From positions 64,001-128,000 of the forward strand of contig CAVXXK010000001.1 in the NCBI GenBank assembly GCA_963765675.1: DNA of 64,000 nucleotides, given 5' to 3'. The position numbers were made by a program, and so were the translations under genes. Below the pieces are notes generated by a model. It saw only the letters and a list, made by a program, of their open reading frames with translations, had not been told where the DNA came from and did not search any database. Source of the stretch: an uncultured delta proteobacterium. GTDB lineage: Bacteria > Desulfobacterota > Binatia > Binatales > Binataceae. This document shows, piece after piece, positions 498 through 35,351 of this stretch (positions are counted from its first letter, which is position 1; each line of letters opens with the position of its first letter).

Positions 498-2943
498 TCA
501 GTTCAGAATCGTGCGTTCCGTGCGCGGGCCTGTCGCAGGCTTTTCTGGCGCAGGCGCGGCGGCTTGCGCGGCGTCGCCATTGACCAGCGCGGCGGCCAGG
601 ACTTCATCGACGGTGTCGACGAAGATCATTTTCAGCTCGCCACGGACCTCTGCGGGTATGTCCTCGAGGTCGCGCTCGTTTCGACGAGGCAGAATGATCG
701 TCTTGATTCCTGCGCGACGTGCCGCGAGCACTTTTTCTTTGACTCCGCCGACCGGCATCACCTTGCCCCGCAGCGTGATCTCGCCAGTCATCGCGACTTC
801 CGCCCTGATCGGACGGCCGCTCAGGAGCGACGCGAGCGAAGCCGCGAGCGTCACACCAGCGGAGGGACCGTCCTTGGGAATCGCGCCGGCGGGAACGTGA
901 ATGTGGATGTCCGACTTTTCGAAAAAGTCGGCCGGGATTCCAAGTCGCTCGGCGCGCGAGCGCACGTAGGACATCGCGGCCTGCGCCGATTCCTTCATCA
1001 CGTCGCCCAGCGACCCGGTCAGCATAAGACCCTTTTGCCCCGCCATCCGGGTGGCTTCGATAAACATGATCTCGCCGCCGTTGGGCGTCCATGCAAGCCC
1101 GGTTGCGACACCGGTTTCGTTGGTGCGTTCGGCGACTTCGGAGAAAAACCGCGGCAGCCCGAGATAGCGCGAGACGTCTTCCGCCGTGACCTGCGTCGGC
1201 ATCGCACCGCCTTCGGAGGTGGCGCGTGCGATTTTGCGGCATACGCGCGCGATCTCGCGCTCGAGGTTGCGCAGCCCCGACTCGCGCGTGTAGCTGCGGA
1301 TAATCTCGGCGATCGCGCCGGCGGTGAACTCGATCTTCGACTCGCCGAGTCCGTTTTCTTCAAGCTGCTTGCGAATCAGGTGGCGCTCGGCGATTTGCAG
1401 CTTTCTCTTCCTCGGTGTAACCCGGCAGCTCGAGCACTTCCATTCTGTCCCGCAGCGCCGGCGGAATCGGATCGAGCATATTGGCCGTGGTCAGGAACAG
1501 AACCTTCGAGAGATCGAACGGCACATCGAGATAGTGGTCGGAGAACGAATTGTTCTGCTCGGGATCGAGCACTTCGAGCAGCGCCGAGGCGGGATCGCCT
1601 CGGAAATCCATCCCGAGCTTGTCGACCTCGTCAAGGATGAAGAGCGGATTGTTCGAGCCCGCGTTGCGCAGCCCTTGGATAATCCTGCCGGGCAGCGAGC
1701 CGATGTAAGTGCGGCGATGGCCGCGGATCTCGGCTTCGTCGCGGATACCGCCGAGCGACAGGCGCACGAACTTGCGTCCGAGCGCGCGCGCGATCGATTT
1801 GCCCAGCGAAGTTTTGCCGGTTCCCGGGGGGCCGACGAAGCATAGGATCGGACCCTTGGTGTCTTTCTTGAGCTTGCGCACCGCGAGGAATTCGAGGATG
1901 CGCTCCTTAATCTTGTCGAGGTCGTAATGATCCTCGTCGAGCACCTTGCGCGCGTTGGCGATATCGAGGTTGTCCTCGGTCGAGACGCTCCACGGCAGGC
2001 TCACCAGCCAATCGATATACGTGCGGACGACGGTATGCTCCGCCGATTCGGGCGGGATCATGCGCAGGCGTTCGAGTTCCTTGTCGGCGGCCTTGCGCGC
2101 CTCGGGGGGCATCTTGGCCTCTTCGATTTTCTTCTCCAGCTCGTCGATCTCGCTGGTGCGCGCATCGCCTTCGCCGAGTTCTTTCTGGATCGCCTTGAGC
2201 TGCTGGCGCAGATAGTACTCGCGCTGATTCTTGTTGAGCTCGGTCTGGACCTGCGACTGGATTTTGTGGCCAAGCTCGAGCAGCTCGATTTCGCGGCCCA
2301 GGATAGCGATCAGCTTTTCCAGGCGCGCGCGTACGTCAACCGTGCCGAGCAGATCCTGCGATTCCTCGACCGCGATCTTCAGATACGACGCGACCATGTC
2401 GGCCAGCCGCCCCGGCTCGCGAACCTTCATCGCCTGCACCTGCAATTCGTCAGGCAGGTACGGCACGAGCGAAACGAACTTCGAGAATTGGCTCACCAGA
2501 TGCGCGTGCAGCGCTTCGATTTCCTTGTCGGGTGCGGATTGATCGACCACGCGGGTCGCGCGCGCGATAAAATATGGCTCGGCCTGGATATAGTTGGTCA
2601 GCTCGATCCGCGCGATTCCCTGCACCAGCACCCGAACGCTCTGATCCGGGTAGCGCAGCATCTTGAGAATCTGCACCGCGGTGCCGTATTGGAACAGCCC
2701 GTCGGCGTGAGGAGATTCCTCTTCGGGATTCTTCTGCGCCGCGAGCGCGATAATCTTTTGCGTCTGTCCGACATCCTCGATCAACTTGAGCGAAGACGCG
2801 CGAGAGACCAAAAACGGATGAATCTGGTTAGGAAAGATTACGATACCGCGCAGCGGCAGTACCGCCAGGACATCGGGGATCTCAACCTTGCTGAGATCTT
2901 CCTCGATATCGAAACCTTTTTCCCCTTTGGGTTTATCCGCCAT
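498..2943 (-). CDS. lon: Lon ATP-dependent protease (one apparent +1 frameshift near 1402)
   Basis: LON N-domain, Walker [18 protein letters not shown], and PKDGPSAG catalytic Ser motif. Removing one A at GAG AAA G CTG joins ORFs 1360-2943 and 498-1202 in frame. Confidence 0.95.
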
Positions 2944-3099
2944 AGGACGATTGAAACCTCATTCAGGAGGGGACGCCGCCGCCCGTCGCTTCCACCCAAT
3001 CCACATTTTACCGTAGTATATGGATGCCGGGCAGACAAGGTAGCCTCTCTTTATTTGAAGGTAACCACGGTTTATTCCGGCGCCACTGGCGAGGTGATC

Positions 3100-3525
3100 T
3101 TGTCCAAATCCCGGTTCGAAAAGCTTTTCAGCCCCGACGAAGCGAACCATCTCATCCCGCGGCTCGAGATCATCATGCGCGACCTCCAGCTCATGGCGAA
3201 TTTCGTCCGCGCACGTATCAACGAGCTTGCAACCGAGGATCCCGACCTGCTCAACCATACGCTGCCGGAGATCGTCGAGCTTCATCCCGACCTCGACGAG
3301 CCGAGCACGCGGATGGCGCAGGCGGTGGAGCAGATCGAGGAGCTCGGGTGCTTTCTCAAGGATATCGATCAGGGCCTGGTCGATTTCCCGTTCGACAACG
3401 GCGAGGAAGTGGTCTTCCTGTGCTGGCAGTTCGGTGAGCAGAGCGTGATCGCATGGCATCCGATCGAAGGCGGCTTCGAGGGCCGGCGTCCGCTGCCGGG
3501 CGCGCCCAAGCCGTGGCTCAACTAA
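3100..3525 (+). CDS. DUF2203 family protein
   Basis: FSPDEANHLIP...LKDIDQGLVDFP...VFLCWQFGE...WHPIEGGFEGRRPL; TTG start after GAGGTG. Confidence 0.8.
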   Translation: MSKSRFEKLFSPDEANHLIPRLEIIMRDLQLMANFVRARINELATEDPDLLNHTLPEIVELHPDLDEPSTRMAQAVEQIEELGCFLKDIDQGLVDFPFDNGEEVVFLCWQFGEQSVIAWHPIEGGFEGRRPLPGAPKPWLN

Positions 3526-4051: not shown

Positions 4052-4799
4052 CCCGCGCTTCAAGGCTATCGTCCTGGACCTGTTCGATACGCTCGTCACG
4101 TGGAACCCCGCGTTGCTGCCGATGGTGAATTGGCGCGGACGTGAGTTCCGCAGCACCACCCCTCTGTTGTATCCGATCCTCGAAGATTCGCTCGGTGCGC
4201 GCTTTGACCGCGAGGCGTTCATGGACGCGCACAGCAAAGTGTACGAGGAGATTTTCGACGCACGCTCGCGCGACGAGATCGAAATCTCGTGCCTGGATCG
4301 CTTTACGCGCACGCTCGTGCGAACCGGCGTCGAGCCTGCTCTCGCCGCTCCTCTTGCCGAGCGCCTGCGCCGCACGCATATGGCGCGCGTGCGCGAAGTC
4401 ACCGCCGCGCCCGCCGCGCGACTGGAAGCGGTGCGCAGGCTGCACAAGCATTACCGGCTCGGCCTGCTCTCGAACTTCGACGACGCCGCGACCGGCCACG
4501 AAATCATGCACGACACCGGAATTCGCGAGCTGTTCGACGTCGTCGTCATCTCGGCCGAGCTGGGCCTGCGCAAACCGCATCGCGATATCTTTCGCCACAC
4601 GCTCGACGCGCTGGGGCTGAAGCCCAGCGAGATCCTGTTCGTCGGCGACACGCCGCACGAAGACGTTCTCGGGGCCAAGCGGATGGGAATCCATGTCGCG
4701 TGGATCAACAAGCATGGCAAACCGTTTCCAGAAGGAATCGGTGTGCCCGAAATTGAAATCGGCGACCTGACCGAGCTGCCGGAGCGACTCGGATGCTGA
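4044..4799 (+). CDS. HAD-superfamily hydrolase
   Basis: DLFDTL motif I, LSN, KP and VGDTPHEDVLGA. Confidence 0.9.
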   Translation: MADPRFKAIVLDLFDTLVTWNPALLPMVNWRGREFRSTTPLLYPILEDSLGARFDREAFMDAHSKVYEEIFDARSRDEIEISCLDRFTRTLVRTGVEPALAAPLAERLRRTHMARVREVTAAPAARLEAVRRLHKHYRLGLLSNFDDAATGHEIMHDTGIRELFDVVVISAELGLRKPHRDIFRHTLDALGLKPSEILFVGDTPHEDVLGAKRMGIHVAWINKHGKPFPEGIGVPEIEIGDLTELPERLGC

Positions 4800-5229: not shown

Positions 5230-6000
5230 GTGACAATGCCCGCTGCGATAATTATCGAGAAGATCCGCCGCGCCGGCGCGCCCTACGGACTCAACCTTGT
5301 CGCGACCGCCGCGGTCGAGCGCTATGACGCCGCGGTAACAGAACCCTATCGCGCGCGCGCAATCGCTCCAGACGCGCGCACGATCATCGTGGTCGCCAAT
5401 GGCGGCGGTGAATTATGGGCCGCGCTGAAGCGCCACGCCGACAGCCATCCCGGATGGTGGCAGCGCGCCAATCCGCTCGACGACTTCACGCACGAGATAG
5501 TCGAGCACGAGATCGCACCCGCCGCACGCGCCGGCGGCGCAAACGTGCGCATCGTTTATCCATTCATGAACAACGCCGCGACGCTTAATTTTATCGAGCT
5601 CGGAAAAGCCGCAGGCCTTGCCGGGCCGAGCATCCTTGGCGTCGTCGTGCATCCGGTATACGGACCGTGGATCGCGTTTCGCGCGGCAATCCTGATCGAT
5701 CAATCGATCGACGCGCCGGGTGCCGCGGTCGCGTTCGATCCCTGCCCCTCGTGCACCGTGCGCAGTTGCATTCCCGCCTGCCCGGTTGGCGCGGTCGCGT
5801 TTCCAACCGGATGGGACATCCCCAGATGCCTAACGCATCGCGTCGAAGACGAACCCGACTGCGCGCCGCGATGCCACGCGCGCGCGGGATGCGTGCTCGG
5901 CCCCGAGCATCGCTATCCCGACGACGAACTCGCCCATCATCAAGCGCGCGCCCTGCGCGCGATGCGCCCGTGGTACGAGAAGAACGTGAAGCCGAAGTAA
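5230..6000 (+). CDS. 4Fe-4S protein, QueG/CblC-like
   Basis: HPVYGPWIAFRAA followed by CPSCTVRSCIPACP and later C...C...C...C. Confidence 0.65.
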   Translation: MTMPAAIIIEKIRRAGAPYGLNLVATAAVERYDAAVTEPYRARAIAPDARTIIVVANGGGELWAALKRHADSHPGWWQRANPLDDFTHEIVEHEIAPAARAGGANVRIVYPFMNNAATLNFIELGKAAGLAGPSILGVVVHPVYGPWIAFRAAILIDQSIDAPGAAVAFDPCPSCTVRSCIPACPVGAVAFPTGWDIPRCLTHRVEDEPDCAPRCHARAGCVLGPEHRYPDDELAHHQARALRAMRPWYEKNVKPK

Positions 6001-6013
6001 AACAAAACCCAAC

Positions 6014-6040
6014 CGGCCACAAAGACACCAAGACACGAAG
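6014..6040 (+). repeat. Left inverted repeat of GxxExxY cassette (3x CACNAAGA)
   Basis: CGGCCACAAAGACACCAAGACACGAAG matches the reverse complement of 6447-6473 at 25/27 positions. Confidence 0.9.
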
Positions 6041-6436
6041 ATGAAAGGGTTTGATCCGATTCCTGCCGCGACCGAAGAGGCTGCTGCCATCGTGATCGAC
6101 GCTGCCTTTGCCGTTCACCGCTCACTTGGACCGGGATTGTTGGAATCGATCTATGAGGCATGCCTGGCGCACGAGCTCTTTCTCAGACACATTCCGTTTC
6201 AAACGCAGGTCTCGCTTCCGATTCAATACAAAGACCTGAAATTGGAAAGTGCGCTCAGATTGGATCTTTTGGTGGCGGATTCTCTCGTCGTCGAACTGAA
6301 GGCGACCGAGAGAATGTTGCCCCTATATAAAGCGCAACTGCTGACCTATCTAAAGCTATCGGGACTCAGGCTCGGTCTCCTGATCAATTTCAATGTCGGT
6401 ATAATCAAAGAAGGAATTAAACGAATCGTGCGTTAG
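6041..6436 (+). CDS. GxxExxY protein (PD-(D/E)XK nuclease-like)
   Basis: LGPGLLESIYEACL, RLDLLV, VVELK, AQLLTYLK and GLLINFN; visibly lower GC than its neighbours. Confidence 0.95.
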   Translation: MKGFDPIPAATEEAAAIVIDAAFAVHRSLGPGLLESIYEACLAHELFLRHIPFQTQVSLPIQYKDLKLESALRLDLLVADSLVVELKATERMLPLYKAQLLTYLKLSGLRLGLLINFNVGIIKEGIKRIVR

Positions 6437-6445
6437 CACGATTCG
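6422..6445. terminator. Perfect hairpin overlapping the GxxExxY stop codon
   Basis: CGAATCGTGC-GTTA-GCACGATTCG, 10-bp stem. Confidence 0.55.
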
Positions 6446-6446
6446 C

Positions 6447-6473
6447 CTTCGTGTCTTTGTGTCTTAGTGGCCG
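6447..6473 (-). repeat. Right inverted repeat of GxxExxY cassette
   Basis: Minus strand reads CGGCCACTAAGACACAAAGACACGAAG. Confidence 0.9.
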
Positions 6474-6493
6474 CCCGGTCTTCGTCTTGTTTT

Positions 6494-7468
6494 TTACCGC
6501 CCGAGCTTGCGCGCCACTTCCTTCGCGAAGTAGGTCAGGATCAAATCCGCGCCGGCGCGGCGGATGCTGGTCAGCACTTCCATTGTCGCGCGCTCTTCGT
6601 CGATCCAACCGTTGATTCCCGCCGCTTTGATCATCGAGTACTCCCCCGAGACGTTGTACGCCGCAACCGGAACATTGAATTTCTGCTTCACCCGCCAGAT
6701 CAGATCGAGATACGGCAGAGCCGGCTTGACCATCACGATATCGGCGCCCTCCTCGAGATCGAGCGCGACCTCGCGCAGCGCCTCATCGCCGTTTGGCGGA
6801 TCCATCTGGTATGAGCGGCGATCACCGAACTGCGGGGCCGAATCGGCCGCATCACGAAACGGACCATAGAAAGCCGATGCGAACTTCGCTGAGTACGCCA
6901 TTATCGCGACATGCGCGAAGCCGTTTTCATCCAGCGCGCGGCGAATCGCGCCGACGCGCCCGTCCATCATATCCGACGGCGCGACGATATCGGCGCCGGC
7001 GCGCGCGTGCGAAAGCGCTTCGCGCACGAGCAGCTCGAGGGTCGCGTCGTTATCGACGTCGCCGCCTTTGACCGCGCCGCAATGCCCGTGGTCGGTGTAT
7101 TCGCACATGCATACGTCGGTGATAACCGCGAGTGCGGGGACGCGTTCCTTGACTTCGCGAATCGCGCGCTGCACTTCGCCGTCGTCGTTCCACGCCTCGC
7201 TGCCGATCGCATCTTTACGCTCCGGGATTCCGAACAGGATCAGCGCGGGCACGCCGGCCGCGTGAAGCTCGCGCGCCTCGGCGACAATATTGTCCACCGA
7301 CATCTGCGCGACTCCCGGCATCGAGGGGATCGGCCGCTTGATTCCGCGGCCGGGGCATACGAAGAGCGGCTGGATCAGGTTGTCGGCGGCGAGCCGCGTC
7401 TCCCGCGTCATCCTGCGCAGCGTTTCGGTGCGCCGCAGGCGCCTTGGGCGATTTATCGGAAATGCCAT
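6494..7468 (-). CDS. hemB: Porphobilinogen synthase
   Basis: [37 protein letters not shown] and AYNVSGEY. Confidence 0.98.
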
Positions 7469-7525
7469 TTTTGAACTGACCCCGCTTGCGAACCCAGCGG
7501 ACGGATTATATCGCGCGCGCGAGTC

Positions 7526-9100
7526 TTAAAAAGCCCCGCGGGCTCGCGGCCTGGCCGCGGTTTCGTAGTGTTCGCGAATCGCCCCGATCAACGCCGGAAC
7601 CGTGTATTCCGAGGGCTGCACCACAACTTTGAACCCGCGCGCGACCGCGGTCGCCGCCGTGATTGGACCGATCACCGCAGCGTTGAGTCCGCGAGCAGAG
7701 GCGCCGACCAGGTCGCAAAAATTCTCGACCGTGCTCGAGCTTGTGAATGCGACGAGATCGATCTCTCCGGCCGCCACCATCGCGCGGATCCTCGCGGACT
7801 GCGCGCCCGATGGTTTGACTGTGCGATAGACTGGCGCAACTTCTACCATGCGCGCGCCCTGCTCGAGCAGAATTTTCGGCAGAATCTCACGCGCTACCTG
7901 CGCGCGCGGAATCAGGATACTCGCACCGCGAATCCGGCGCGCGCCGATCGCCGGGATAATCGCCTCGGCGCGGTACTCGGACGGCACCGCCGCGACGCGC
8001 AGCGCGTAATGCTCGAGCGCGCGCGCCGTCGCGGGACCGATCGCGCACAGGCGCGCACGTCCGAGGCCGCGCAGATCGTGGCCGAGCGCGCGCAGGCGCG
8101 CGACGAAGCCATCGACCCCGGTCGCACTGGTGAAGATCACCCAGTCGAATTTCTCGATCTTGGCGATCGCGCGGTCCAGCGCGGAGTAGCTTGACGGTTC
8201 CGCAGTGGCGATAGTGGGAAACTCGATCGCGTCAGCTCCGAGGGCGCGCAACTCCATCGCGAATGCGCCGCCGTGGGCGCGCGACCGCGTCACAACGATC
8301 CGCCGACCGAACAGCGGCATCTTCTCGAACCATCCGAGCTCGCCGCGCAGCGCGGCGCATTCGCCCACAACCAGGACGGCCGGTGCGCCGAGCTTTGCGC
8401 GTTCGCATTCAGCCGCCAGCGTCTTGAGAGTCGCCAGTACCGTCGCCTGCGCGGCGGTCGTGCCCCACTGGACGGCGGCGGCGGGTGTCGCGTCGGGAAG
8501 GCCTGCGGCTGAGAGGCGTGCAAGCACTGAGCGCATCCGCGAGGTGGCCATCAGGATAACGATCGTCCCGCGATTTTTCGCCGCGCGCGCCAGATCGGTC
8601 CACGGTATCGAGCCGCGCGCCGTCTTCGACTCGTCCTCGTGTCCCGTGACGAACGCGACGAACGAACCTAACCGGCGATGCGTCAGCGGGATACCCGCGA
8701 ATGCGGGCGCGGCAATCGCGGACGTGATTCCGGGAACGATCTCGAATTTCACTCCGGCTTTCGCAAGCGCCTGCGCCTCTTCACCGCCGCGGCCGAAGAT
8801 AAACGGATCGCCGCCTTTGAGCCGCACGACCTGATGTCCCTTGCGCGCACGCTCGATAAGCATCCGGTTGATTTCGGCCTGCTCGACAATTTCTCCGCCA
8901 CCGCTCTTCTTTCCGGCGTAAATCAATTCCGCGCCGGAGGGCGCGAGTTCGAGCAATTCGGGATTCACCAGATTGTCGTACAGAACCACCTCGGCGCGCC
9001 CGAGGCACTGCGCGCCGCGAACGGTTATCAGGTCCGGCGCGCCGGGTCCGGCGCCAACCAGATATACTGTGCCGGCGCGCGCGCTCCCGCGCTCACTCAT
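7526..9100 (-). CDS. cobA/hemD: Fused uroporphyrinogen-III C-methyltransferase/synthase
   Basis: VYLVGAGPG and RLKGGDPFIFGRGGEE, then a HemD domain (PLFGRRIVVTR, FTSSSTV). Confidence 0.93.
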   Translation of the reverse strand: MSERGSARAGTVYLVGAGPGAPDLITVRGAQCLGRAEVVLYDNLVNPELLELAPSGAELIYAGKKSGGGEIVEQAEINRMLIERARKGHQVVRLKGGDPFIFGRGGEEAQALAKAGVKFEIVPGITSAIAAPAFAGIPLTHRRLGSFVAFVTGHEDESKTARGSIPWTDLARAAKNRGTIVILMATSRMRSVLARLSAAGLPDATPAAAVQWGTTAAQATVLATLKTLAAECERAKLGAPAVLVVGECAALRGELGWFEKMPLFGRRIVVTRSRAHGGAFAMELRALGADAIEFPTIATAEPSSYSALDRAIAKIEKFDWVIFTSATGVDGFVARLRALGHDLRGLGRARLCAIGPATARALEHYALRVAAVPSEYRAEAIIPAIGARRIRGASILIPRAQVAREILPKILLEQGARMVEVAPVYRTVKPSGAQSARIRAMVAAGEIDLVAFTSSSTVENFCDLVGASARGLNAAVIGPITAATAVARGFKVVVQPSEYTVPALIGAIREHYETAARPRARGAF

Positions 9101-10067
9101 CGGCGATCAACGCCTTCGCGCCGCGCGCGAGCATCCGCTCGGCCAGCGCCCGTCCGGCGCCAGCCGCGATCGGTGGCGACAGATTGAACTCTACCGGCGC
9201 TTCCAGATCGTCGGCGATCGACTGCTTGCCGTCCGGGCTGAAGAGGATCGCGCGAATCGAGAGCTTCTCGTCGTCGGCGATCGCGCGCACTCCGAGCGGC
9301 GTGGTGCATGAAGCTCCAAGCTTTGCCAGAAACGCACGCTCGGCCGCAGTCTCGTAATGCGCACGCGAATCGTCGAGAGCTTCGAGCGCGCCGCCAAGCT
9401 CTGCCGAAATTCCGCTGGAACGGATTTCGATCGCAAGGGCGCCTTGCCCTCCGGCCGGTATGAAATCGCGCTCATCGAGGATCGTGAATTTGATCTCGGC
9501 CGCCCGCCCGAGGCGATTGAGTCCCGCAGCCGCGATTATGATCGCATCGAAGGTGCCCTCAGCCACTTTTTTGAGCCGCGTATCGACATTGCCGCGCAGC
9601 GCAACGATTTCGAGCGCGGGATTTTTTCGCAGCGCCTGAAATCGCCGCCGCATTGAGGAGGTTCCAACCCGCGCGCCCGCCGGCAATGCGGCAAAATCGC
9701 CACCCGCCGCCGACACCAGGATATCGCACACGTCCTCGCGCTCCGGCACCGCCGCAATTCGGAAACCGTCGGGAAGCACCGCGGGTAGATCCTTCATCGA
9801 ATGCACCGCGAGATCGATCTTCCCGTCGGCGAGCGCCTGCTCGAGCTCGCGGATGAAAAGCCCCTTGCCTCCCACGCGTGCGAGCGACGCGTCCTTCATT
9901 TTGTCGCCACTGGTGCGAATCGGAGTGATCTCGATCGCTTTGCCCGGCATAACCGCCGCCAGGCGCGACTTGACGTACTCGGCTTGTGCTGTCGCGAGCG
10001 CGCTCGGACGCGTCCCGATTCTGATTGTGGCAAGTTTTGACGCGCGCGCGCCCGGACTAGAACTCAT
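9093..10067 (-). CDS. hemC: Hydroxymethylbilane synthase
   Basis: IGTRPSALA, GGKGLFIRELE, VHSMKDLP, GTSSMRR and RGNVDTRL. Confidence 0.97.
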   Translation of the reverse strand: MSSSPGARASKLATIRIGTRPSALATAQAEYVKSRLAAVMPGKAIEITPIRTSGDKMKDASLARVGGKGLFIRELEQALADGKIDLAVHSMKDLPAVLPDGFRIAAVPEREDVCDILVSAAGGDFAALPAGARVGTSSMRRRFQALRKNPALEIVALRGNVDTRLKKVAEGTFDAIIIAAAGLNRLGRAAEIKFTILDERDFIPAGGQGALAIEIRSSGISAELGGALEALDDSRAHYETAAERAFLAKLGASCTTPLGVRAIADDEKLSIRAILFSPDGKQSIADDLEAPVEFNLSPPIAAGAGRALAERMLARGAKALIADE

Positions 10068-11409
10068 CGTCCTGGTCGTCCTGATCATCCTGATCGTCGG
10101 CGCCTAATGCTTCCAGCTCAGCGCTGGCGGCGGAGATCTCGCCGCACAGAAGCTTGCGCGCGACTTCGGCCGCGTATGCGCCCTCGGCGGCGTTTGCGCC
10201 GCTGGTACGCAGGCCCTGCAAAATCCGATGCAGCAGCTTGTTGGTGAGGCCGCGGGTCAGCACCTCGACCCGCTCGCGCTCGGCAGGTTCGAGCGCCGAG
10301 AGCCATCCGCGATGCCGCCCCATTTCGAGGTCGCGCAGACGGTCGATACTGTAGCGGATATCCTTGATCGTCGGCACGAGATCGAGCCCGTTCATCCAGC
10401 GCCAGAACGCTTCGAGTTCGAGTTCGACGATCTCCTCGGCCTTCGCGGCTTCGCGTTCGCGTTCGGCGCGCGATTTGTGCACCACCTGCGCGAGATCGTC
10501 GATATCGTAGAGGTAAACGTTTTCGAGCGAGTTCATCCGCTCGTCGAAGTTGCGCGGCACGCCGAGATCGATCAGGAAGATCGGCTTGTAGCGCCGCTCC
10601 TTTATGATCGTTTCGAATTCATCGAGTGCGATTACCGGACGCGTCACCGCGACCGAACCGATCACGACGTCGGCAATCTTGAGATAGGGCCTGTAGTTGT
10701 CGAACGGGACCGCGGTGCCGCCAAGCTCGCGCGCGAGCGCGACCGCGTGATCGAAAGTGCGCGAGGTGATGATGAGCGATTCGATTCCGATCGCGCGCAA
10801 TTGCCGCGCGGTCAGCTCCGCCATCTTTCCCGCCCCCATCAGCATCACGGTCTTGTCTTTGAGCGAGTCGAAAATCTGTCCGGCCAGCGCCACCGCAGCC
10901 GCGCTCACCGAGACCGAGCCGTGCCCGATGAGAGTTGCCTTGCGAATTCTCTTGGCGACCGTGAAGCCCTTGTGGAATGCGCGATGCAGCACCAGCCCGA
11001 CGGTGCCCGCCTCCGCCGCGTTCGCGTACGCGAGCTTCACCTGGCCCAAAATCTGCGGCTCTCCGACCATCATCGAGTCCAGGCTCGCGCCGACGCGAAA
11101 CAGATGCCGCGCGGCCTCGCGCCCCGTCAGGCGATAGAGCGCGGGGGCGAACGCCTCGAGCGCGACTGCGCGATCAGTCGCGATAAATTCAGCCGCGTCC
11201 GCCAGTGCGCGCTCGCAATCCGCGGCGACGCCGACAATCTCAACCCGATTGCAGGTCGAGAGGATTGCCGCTTCGCTGATCGACGCCACGCGCTCCCTCA
11301 GGCGCACGAGCGCCGGCGCGATATCGCCGTCCGCGTACGCCAGCCGCTCGCGCACCGCGACCGCGGCAGTGCGATGGTTCAGCCCGAGTATGAAGAGATT
11401 CTGCTCCAT
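10057..11409 (-). CDS. hemA: Glutamyl-tRNA reductase
   Basis: GLNHRTA, STCNRVE, SLDSMMVGEPQILGQ and GAGKM. Confidence 0.98.
   Translation of the reverse strand: MEQNLFILGLNHRTAAVAVRERLAYADGDIAPALVRLRERVASISEAAILSTCNRVEIVGVAADCERALADAAEFIATDRAVALEAFAPALYRLTGREAARHLFRVGASLDSMMVGEPQILGQVKLAYANAAEAGTVGLVLHRAFHKGFTVAKRIRKATLIGHGSVSVSAAAVALAGQIFDSLKDKTVMLMGAGKMAELTARQLRAIGIESLIITSRTFDHAVALARELGGTAVPFDNYRPYLKIADVVIGSVAVTRPVIALDEFETIIKERRYKPIFLIDLGVPRNFDERMNSLENVYLYDIDDLAQVVHKSRAEREREAAKAEEIVELELEAFWRWMNGLDLVPTIKDIRYSIDRLRDLEMGRHRGWLSALEPAERERVEVLTRGLTNKLLHRILQGLRTSGANAAEGAYAAEVARKLLCGEISAASAELEALGADDQDDQDDQDDEF

Positions 11410-34141: not shown

Positions 34142-35351
<1,210 letters not shown>

Follow-up and report, generated by a model that had tools for sequence, protein, structure and literature searches.

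A GxxExxY gene between inverted arrays of short tandem units: one copy of a widespread three-part unit

A small gene of the GxxExxY family lies between two inverted repeat arrays in a 64,000-nucleotide stretch of DNA (the window; positions 64,001 to 128,000 of contig CAVXXK010000001.1) from an uncultured delta proteobacterium of the Binataceae. The gene (6041–6436, plus strand) encodes 131 residues and is assigned by PF13366, TIGR04256, and a structure model to a minimal PD-(D/E)XK nuclease. The locus is one copy of a widespread unit with three parts—a 5′ array, the GxxExxY gene, and the same array inverted—that is inherited as one piece. In the window, the 5′ arm (6014–6040, plus strand) consists of GGCC followed by three tandem 8-nt units of the form CACNAAG(A), which read CACAAAGA, CACCAAGA, and CACGAAG at 6018–6040; the arm ends at 6040, directly before the ATG at 6041, and no GGAGG-type Shine–Dalgarno sequence is present. 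The 3′ arm (6447–6473) is T/G-rich on the plus strand, lies 10 nt past the stop codon, and carries CACTAAGA, CACAAAGA, and CACGAAG on the minus strand from 6469 to 6447. Reverse-complemented, it agrees with the 5′ arm at 25 of the 27 nt; the two differences both concern the N of CACNAAG. An earlier note, made from the sequence alone, had described the 27-bp repeats, their units and mismatches, and the start codon abutted by the left repeat without a Shine–Dalgarno sequence in just these terms, and all of this is confirmed. Searching the 64 kb with CACNAAGACACNAAGACACNAAG at up to three mismatches returns two matches, which are the two arms, and none of 100 dinucleotide shuffles contains a match. 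With a looser unit definition, no array beyond the two arms is found in the window, and the solo trimers that the note had proposed to look for are absent from it.

The arms are the core of a longer inverted repeat (5999–6045 and 6442–6488; 47 nt, 77% complementary) that begins at the upstream gene's stop codon and reaches almost to that of hemB. According to the inverted-repeat search, its weaker outer left part (5999–6017) is A-rich with AAAAC repeats, and its weaker outer right part (6470–6488) contains GTCTTC and GTCTTG and leads into a run of T up to the hemB stop codon. The same search finds a perfect 10-bp inner hairpin with a 4-nt loop (6422–6445), overlapping the TAG stop codon (6434–6436). 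The upstream neighbour is an open reading frame (ORF) of 256 residues (5230–6000, plus strand) with a ferredoxin-like cysteine cluster (CxxC...C), for which a profile search gives sub-threshold matches only, to QueG and MMACHC; its TAA occupies 5998–6000, and the cassette begins directly behind it. On the other side lies the convergent hemB (6494–7468, minus strand; porphobilinogen synthase, PF00490, E = 5.9e-154). The GC content of the GxxExxY ORF is 0.50, against 0.655 for the upstream ORF and 0.64 for hemB, so the earlier description of a gene lower in GC than its neighbours, set in the gap between two convergent genes, also stands. The window contains neither a transposase gene nor, by tblastn, a second GxxExxY copy. 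A promoter scan of 5700–6700 gives no sites, and an Rfam search of 5800–6700, up to E = 10, gives three chance-level matches and no match to ribosomal RNA (rRNA).

The window protein matches TIGR04256 with 141.6 bits (cut-off 35; profile positions 3–116 of 116) and PF13366 (PDDEXK_3) with 137.4 bits (cut-off 22; E = 3.7e-40), and its catalytic residues are intact, in line with the earlier assignment to a PD-(D/E)XK-like GxxExxY protein. The family motif is G32xxE35xxY38; D75 with E85-x-K87, and Q99xxxY103, we take to be the D..ExK and QxxxY motifs, as these are named in the RecB/Cas4 literature. Conservation was judged on alignments of 26 and 98 sequences: in the larger one, G32, Y38, D75, E85, Q99, N116, and G125 are invariant, and E35, K87, and Y103 nearly so. 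An AlphaFold2 (AF2) model from the shallow 26-row alignment was unusable (pLDDT 50) and was replaced by one from 98 rows (pLDDT 96, pTM 0.89). The best folds in the PDB are the Cas4 proteins SSO0001 (4ic1; E = 3.6e-3, TMq 0.56) and Pcal_0546 (4r5q), followed by lambda-exonuclease-like enzymes and the AddAB nuclease domain, with Hjc lower in the list; all of these matches are weak. A sequence search of the PDB yields no relative (best E 0.5), the PADLOC matches are limited to Cas4 models below threshold (E 0.017–0.035), and PHROGs has no match for the window protein. On this model, the protein reads as a minimal, catalytically intact RecB/Cas4-like nuclease: it shares with these enzymes the PD-(D/E)XK core with D..ExK and QxxxY, but it lacks a module of Fe–S cluster cysteines and a CRISPR context and has about 60% of their size.

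The family is large, with 7,992 of 8,000 scored candidates (90% clusters) matching at E ≤ 1e-5 and 18,853 GxxExxY/PDDEXK_3 clusters at 50% identity and E ≤ 1e-3. The best non-identical relative of the window protein is 95% identical and lies on a 3.9-kb contig; the next are 75%–76% identical. In the part of a PD-(D/E)XK superfamily survey that covers GxxExxY/PDDEXK_3, the function is given as unknown (PMC3424549). Some natural proteins of about 265–295 residues (P0121–P0126, P0128, P0130, P0132, and others) consist of two GxxExxY domains in tandem, each protein showing two matched stretches, which hints that the single-domain protein works as a dimer; a homodimer prediction on the 98-row alignment with two copies scored 0.00 against a mark of 0.42, which speaks neither for nor against a dimer.

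Whether such arms accompany the family was assessed on the 80 best-scoring of at least 585 confirmed loci from a genome search with the 26-sequence alignment. These loci, at 48%–65% identity, come from 14 named phyla, including one archaeal metagenome-assembled genome (MAG), and include no close relative of the window gene; tblastn places 85 gene copies in them, 78 with complete 150-nt flanks. The flank score is the best ungapped inverted match between the two flanks of a gene, start codons being approximate. Real flanks score at least 12 in 55 of 78 cases and at least 16 in 42 of 78 (the window scores 22), against none of 64 at either threshold when the flanks are displaced by 1200 bp. Flanks paired across loci reach 12 in 26 of 234 cases and 16 in 9 of 234, a control that is inflated because the loci share a motif; the same flanks in direct orientation reach these scores in 15 and 13 of 78 cases, because of nested extra hairpins. 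A unit-based search gives the same answer from another side: the 562 kb of loci contain 157 arrays, and a shuffle one, and 114 of these 157 have a GxxExxY gene within 200 bp; a motif-free k-mer count yields the same picture. The enrichment of inverted short-period repeats around GxxExxY genes that the earlier note had offered as a check is, therefore, present (55/78 against 0/64 displaced), and such arms are a genuine and conserved companion of the gene across the family.

The arms share a style as well as a position. Of the 55 loci, 24 fit a period of 8 nt best, 14 one of 9 nt, and 17 some other period; the commonest units are CACAGAG, CACCAAG, CACGGAG, CGCAAAG, CACAAAG, and CACGAAG. The consensus C-R-C-N-R-A/C-G is common to at least 11 phyla, with 12 variants of the 7-mer C[AG]CN[AG][ACG]G; GACAC and CAAAG each occur in the arms of 25 of the 55 loci, and a record of the cultured Bacteroides finegoldii has arms of the same type. 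The two arms of a locus match in register, variable spacer bases included (51/52 in L014, 32/32 in L052). A Shine–Dalgarno or anti-Shine–Dalgarno mimic was considered for GGAG-type units and dropped, as many unit types (CGCAACG, CACGACG) do not resemble such sequences. Two GxxExxY copies lie within 8 kb of each other in 5 of the 80 loci (L005, L024, L056, L069, L073). In L005, the genes at 2654–3034 and 4392–4745 have different unit classes (CACGACGG and CGCCAAGG), and paralogues in one genome therefore keep distinct arms. The archaeal copy, from a Methanocellaceae MAG (L078, 4001–4390), has a 23-nt perfect inverted repeat in a different unit style (..ACGGCACCAAATCTAAAACAC). In L056, a run of masked or unknown bases at about 2361, inside an epimerase-like neighbour (ORF 1741–2361), marks a gap in the record. 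Over 15 loci (106 kb), nothing reaches an Rfam gathering score.

Traces of the arms also appear in protein records. Read in frame, the upstream arm of the window gives PQRHQDTK-M, and homologues carry the N-terminal extensions KPQRHEDTKN (P0115), PQRHKDTKG (P0111), and PPRHQDTKE (P0151). These shared PQRH(E/K/Q)DTK tails imply that gene callers elsewhere translated the repeat, which suggests that the arms are not special to the window locus. Extensions or fusions at the N terminus of P0111, P0115, P0151, P0164, P0031, P0073, and P0092 read as run-through of repeat arrays or of an upstream gene, and tails of the type ..LRAFVV.. look like the opposite-strand version. Such repeat-derived tails are a systematic gene-calling artefact around the GxxExxY family.

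The hairpins have a constant polarity. The A-rich (CAC..AG) arm is the one before the gene in 47 of 55 loci and the one after it in 8; in an inverted repeat, this polarity is independent of the orientation of the enclosed gene and is a property of the hairpin. Put differently, the T/G-rich strand points outwards (5′ to 3′) at either end of 47 of 55 cassettes, as it does in 7 of 8 hairpins that enclose no gene.

Comparison of related loci shows how the unit is inherited. Among 11 protein pairs at least 70% identical, 6 are syntenic on both sides, 2 have weak one-sided flank matches, and 3 have unrelated flanks (L075/L076, L056/L076, L063/L077); in one of these three, a Verrucomicrobiota locus (L076) and a Desulfobacteraceae locus (L075) share 74% identical proteins and the same CTCACGCAAAGGCGCAAAG arms with no similarity between flanks. 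In all, 43 locus pairs share flanks, of about 3,000 possible among 78 genes, and three Chloroflexota loci do so at a protein identity of only 50%–58%. Of 10 syntenic pairs, 7 have arms that are 0.79–0.93 identical, a value maximised over offsets in low-complexity sequence, while their four-fold degenerate sites, at or near saturation, are 0.21–0.58 identical. The low arm values of L066/L067 (0.44 and 0.33) are an artefact of the 18-nt minimum overlap, another measure giving 0.88; at L068, arm detection took an unrelated 16-mer, and its rows are unreliable and were not used. Arms are also more alike within a locus than between orthologues (mean identity 0.85 against 0.73). Syntenic loci of a Chitinophagaceae group differ in the first unit (AGAG, GGAG, or TAAG), each with the same version in both arms, and L018 differs from L030 by a double change in the third unit, again in both arms. 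These sequence comparisons show arms that are kept, and kept complementary, by purifying selection or by continual homogenisation. An inversion switch was rejected, as all syntenic pairs keep the same gene orientation.

The unit class follows the protein tree, on which it needs 16 changes, compared with 27.2 ± 1.8 (minimum 21) in 300 shuffles. Host phylum needs 39 changes, compared with 49.1 ± 2.0 in shuffles and a possible minimum of 13, and is thus intermixed, with a weak tree signal. Resolution of the tree is poor, with 133 columns and stars on only 7 of its 76 inner branches, and because related rows share labels, the result shows co-inheritance of gene and arms rather than co-evolution.

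Arms also occur without a gene. Seven of the 80 loci hold eight gene-less hairpins, each of two arrays around a loop of 7–34 nt, built from the same units as gene-flanking arms and with the same outer ends (..ACCAC, ..ACCGC, or ..TCACGC). They sit between housekeeping genes, for example between rpe and a HAD-family hydrolase gene, or beside folA. That in L018 is nearly a letter-for-letter copy of the arms of a gene 2.4 kb away, and the unit class is that of the neighbouring gene in both L018 and L027. Signs of decay are found as well: by profile search of six-frame translations, the gene is interrupted in L025 and in L032, L055 keeps a fragment, and L056 keeps two remnants. These decayed remnants in L056 lie inside arrays, the one at 2943–3121 with a listed array on its 3′ side only. 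Of 23 ORFs beside arrays more than 200 bp from a GxxExxY gene, 10 are unmatched and 13 match ordinary, mostly housekeeping families, among them rpe, the HAD hydrolase, folA, a class-I glutamine amidotransferase, recR, a metH fragment, and a YafQ toxin; none of the 23 matches S23p.

Similar sites are on record, under another interpretation, in Geobacter metallireducens. The part of that report which describes them gives paired intergenic sites on opposite strands in three classes, numbering 24 pairs with four tandem octamers, 21 with three TCTCCGTS octamers, and 8 with heptamers (classes 1–3; PMC2700814, Aklujkar et al. 2009). Reverse-complemented, the class 2 octamer TCTCCGTS corresponds to CACGGAGA, a unit that occurs next to GxxExxY genes. 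Class 2 sites in the report's figure lie 84–438 nt apart, and the four pairs checked for their neighbours adjoin ordinary genes; the pairs are absent from G. sulfurreducens and are interpreted as sites of a global regulator of the IHF/HU type (PMC2700814). The likeness extends to opposite-strand pairs of three to five tandem octamers or heptamers, intergenic and in housekeeping surroundings, and to the ..AACAC style of the outer ends. The difference, by the published description with which the comparison was made, is that no gene lies between the sites and no link to GxxExxY is drawn.

The reading we prefer, to which we give a probability of roughly 40%, is a partnership of nuclease and repeat like that of REPIN and RAYT, transcribed by read-through and with an RNA stem as a side effect. 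In it, a Cas4/RecB-like PD-(D/E)XK nuclease would recognise the repeated units (C-R-C-N-R-A/C-G) around its own gene and in gene-less hairpins, and would act on them as DNA, either duplex or folded single strand, so as to maintain and occasionally copy them. The unit would pass mostly vertically, with rare moves to a new intergenic site or host. Its gene, without a promoter of its own and a few bases behind a co-directional host gene, would be transcribed by read-through, and in the transcript the arms would pair over the start codon into a duplex of about 27 bp, of the kind that RNase III cuts in 23S intervening sequences; such a duplex would keep synthesis of the nuclease low. That a protein reads the units is argued by the consensus across phyla together with the tandem build, since pairing alone would not keep a shared unit consensus, and the only constant protein is the nuclease. 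DNA is favoured as the substrate that the nuclease would bind or cut because the arms show no wobble bias and the fold is that of a DNA nuclease.

The REPIN–RAYT comparison rests on an enzyme gene with its own short repeats, in inverted copies, on either side (25/27 in the window; 55/78 in the family), on gene-less, hairpin-forming doublets in the spaces between housekeeping genes (in 7 of the 80 loci, with none in the window), and on mostly vertical inheritance and long persistence, with different repeat types for different paralogues. REPIN–RAYT systems are described as mostly vertically inherited and long-lived in those parts of two reports that treat their inheritance (10.1101/2022.05.22.493013, 10.1101/2021.07.10.451892). 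The systems differ in that the enzyme there is an HUH/Y1 transposase (IS200/IS605 TnpA-like), whereas here it is a 131-residue protein with PD-(D/E)XK as its sole family match, and in that the repeats there are imperfect palindromes of 20–40 nt with a GTAG or CGTC tag, whereas here they are tandem units of 8–9 nt. The GxxExxY family is, moreover, strongly intermixed between phyla, often with several paralogues per genome, and its recognition of the repeats is a putative activity. The loose analogy to REP/RAYT drawn in the earlier note thus holds for the flanking inverted repeats, the mostly vertical inheritance, and the gene-less doublets, but not for the enzyme.

Several observations weigh against this partnership. 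Twenty-three of the 78 genes have no clear arms in the ungapped test, and the loci examined, chosen by score, are not a random sample. Unit class and protein clade could go together simply because they are co-inherited, with no co-evolved specificity. The unit class of a gene-less hairpin differs from that of the neighbouring gene in L010, L013, and L076, and the window contains no gene-less array copy. The fold matches are weak even at their best (E = 3.6e-3, TMq 0.56), and the protein, of 131 residues, has no separate DNA-binding domain. In G. metallireducens, finally, the sequences between paired sites are reported, in the same part of that paper, as not conserved, unlike a copied whole element (PMC2700814).

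A possible but rather less probable explanation is that the arms act purely at the level of RNA, like an intervening sequence placed outside rRNA, and that the nuclease has nothing to do with them. The duplex in a read-through transcript would hide the start codon and be cut by RNase III, which would insulate the inserted gene from its operon and limit synthesis of the nuclease. The anatomy has a close precedent in the 23S rRNA intervening sequence of Coxiella, for which the relevant sections of one report give a length of 428 nt, a 28-bp terminal stem with an S23p ORF of about 130 residues in the loop, three tandem heptamers (GACAGAT) just 5′ of the ATG in strain-variable number, a poor Shine–Dalgarno sequence, and RNase III cuts mapped inside the stem, with mention of older proposals of a transposon origin (PMC4990558). 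ORF-bearing intervening sequences of this kind (Coxiella, Leptospira, Xanthomonas) resemble the window locus in enclosing an ORF of about 130 residues in a terminal stem of about 28 bp and in having tandem short repeats directly before the ATG and a poor Shine–Dalgarno sequence, both present in the window too; they have also long been suspected to be relics of mobile elements. They differ in lying in helix 25 or 45 of 23S rRNA, whereas the window element lies between protein genes; in their S23p four-helix-bundle product, as opposed to the alpha/beta nuclease fold of PF13366; and in their units, which here have 8–9 nt and another sequence. Processing by RNase III, demonstrated there, is presumed here.

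The transcript of the window locus is predicted to fold as this explanation expects. Its predicted free energy is −185.1 kcal/mol, compared with −149.6 ± 5.6 in shuffles (z = −6.35; none of 100 shuffles as stable), and the arms pair as a stem in both the minimum-free-energy and the centroid folds, with the 5′ arm directly at the ATG. A simple longest-ORF rule applied to 65 loci makes the gene before the cassette co-directional with it in 56 and the gene after it in 44, most loci (38/65) lying between co-directional genes, and the outer end of the 5′ arm is a median 10 nt behind the upstream gene. The cassette, thus, looks promoter-less and transcribed by read-through, which would place both arms in the transcript; their conservation and covariation at syntenic loci would also suit a selected stem. 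Yet among 179 arm mismatches, 43 are of G:U type in the sense transcript and 41 of A:C type, which gives no indication that RNA pairing is selected on the coding strand and points to a constraint that acts on DNA or is strand-symmetric. A stem would need neither a unit consensus across phyla nor tandem periodicity, there is no ORF to regulate in the gene-less hairpins or in the 53 gene-less pairs of one Geobacter genome, the arms have the opposite polarity in 8 of 55 loci, and no Rfam family matches the window region or the 15 loci searched. The suggestion in the earlier note of an mRNA stem closing over the gene is therefore physically plausible and has its precedent in 23S intervening sequences, but the absence of a G:U preference leaves the stem without the mark of a selected feature. 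The REPIN/RAYT-like partnership accommodates the stem as a by-product.

Active mobility is unlikely. In this explanation, the nuclease would cut empty sites or gene-less hairpins, into which gene and arms would then be copied, or the arms would serve as terminal inverted repeats. The contexts of the gene are indeed diverse, with shared flanks in so few of the possible locus pairs and unrelated flanks in 3 of the 11 pairs with the most similar proteins; the tree intermixes phyla, two copies lie within 8 kb in 5 of the 80 loci, and the gene-less hairpins could be targets or derivatives. The GC content of the gene can be cited on either side, being consistently 5–11 points below that of the flanks but tracking it closely (r = 0.91, slope 0.82). 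Tracking with a lasting offset implies that GxxExxY genes are long-term residents. Both flanks are syntenic in 6 of these 11 pairs, synteny reaches down to the 50%–58% identity of the Chloroflexota loci, and the arms outlast the saturation of synonymous sites. GxxExxY genes occur in 6 of 72,556 plasmid records, all of them non-mobilizable, and in none of 50,697 phage records. There is one copy in the window, and the absence of a transposase and of target duplications reported in the earlier note holds up: no target duplications or direct repeats were seen at arm boundaries on inspection by eye of the 41 best loci. A minimal cassette that is currently mobile, as that note had proposed, is not supported; what is supported is a unit that settles rarely and then persists.

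It is more doubtful still that the arrays are sites for a host factor, such as a DNA-architectural or global regulator of the IHF/HU type, between which GxxExxY genes merely happen to lie. Tandem short units are typical of protein-binding arrays, the mismatches show no strand-specific wobble bias, and this is the interpretation given to the G. metallireducens pairs in the section cited above (PMC2700814). Of the 157 arrays, however, 114 lie beside a GxxExxY gene, unit class tracks the GxxExxY tree rather than host phylum, and a binding-site array does not need arms that match in register down to the spacer bases. We know of no conserved host factor with so patchy a distribution. That the inverted repeat arose by chance, or is a common bidirectional terminator serving two convergent genes, is refuted by the shuffles (pattern in 0/100) and by the family flank test (55/78, with most loci between co-directional genes); nor is a 396-nt loop a terminator. 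In favour of it are the convergence of the genes here, a run of A on the left facing a run of T on the right, and an inner hairpin that is terminator-like on the minus strand. That inner site (6448–6419, minus strand, serving hemB; 13 pairs and a T-rich tail) is the only terminator-like part of the structure, and it is weak evidence, as the scan gives two sites in the region against 1.1 expected.

Other inverted-repeat elements fit less well. Foldback transposons and miniature inverted-repeat transposable elements (MITEs) have inverted arms of short tandem units and exist as many non-coding copies and a few with an ORF in the loop. Foldback elements are eukaryotic, however, and MITEs are linked to a transposase and to target duplications, neither of which is seen at GxxExxY loci. 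Literature searches on GxxExxY and PF13366 found no link to repeat arrays, a search with six 15-nt arm strings found no match, and one on foldback and hairpin elements found nothing pertinent.

If the nuclease does maintain the repeats, the GxxExxY unit would be a REPIN/RAYT-like system on a different chemistry. The conserved repeat pair gives a first concrete hypothesis on the substrate of these proteins. It also connects observations that had stood apart, namely, the repeat-built stems of rRNA intervening sequences, the paired octamers of Geobacter, and odd N-terminal tails such as PQRHEDTK. A bolder extension, which we regard as speculative and give lower odds than the partnership itself, would make the unit a second, independent, long-lived replicator of prokaryotes built from an enzyme and its repeats. 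Such a replicator would be run by a minimal Cas4/RecB-like nuclease rather than an HUH transposase, would span many phyla, including that of the archaeal MAG (L078, Methanocellaceae), and its arms have the telomere-like polarity described above; the ORF-bearing 23S intervening sequences and the Geobacter sites would belong to the same class, with other cargo or none.

Further features of the window lie outside the cassette. Amid ordinary coding sequence, about 241 G (34143–34383) are followed by about 966 A (34384–35349), a homopolymer block that is almost certainly an assembly or sequencing artefact or filler and not biology. GC content is about 0.62–0.69 over 1–26000 and about 0.50–0.60 over 26400–60000, and this drop, taken with the block, makes one ask whether two different sequences are joined in the window or an island lies within it. 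Closer to the cassette, hemB belongs to a tetrapyrrole cluster on the minus strand (6494–10088), together with an ORF of 524 residues (7526–9100) and one of 331 residues (9093–10088), whose translations, read by eye, resemble a cobA/hemD fusion and hemC, respectively.

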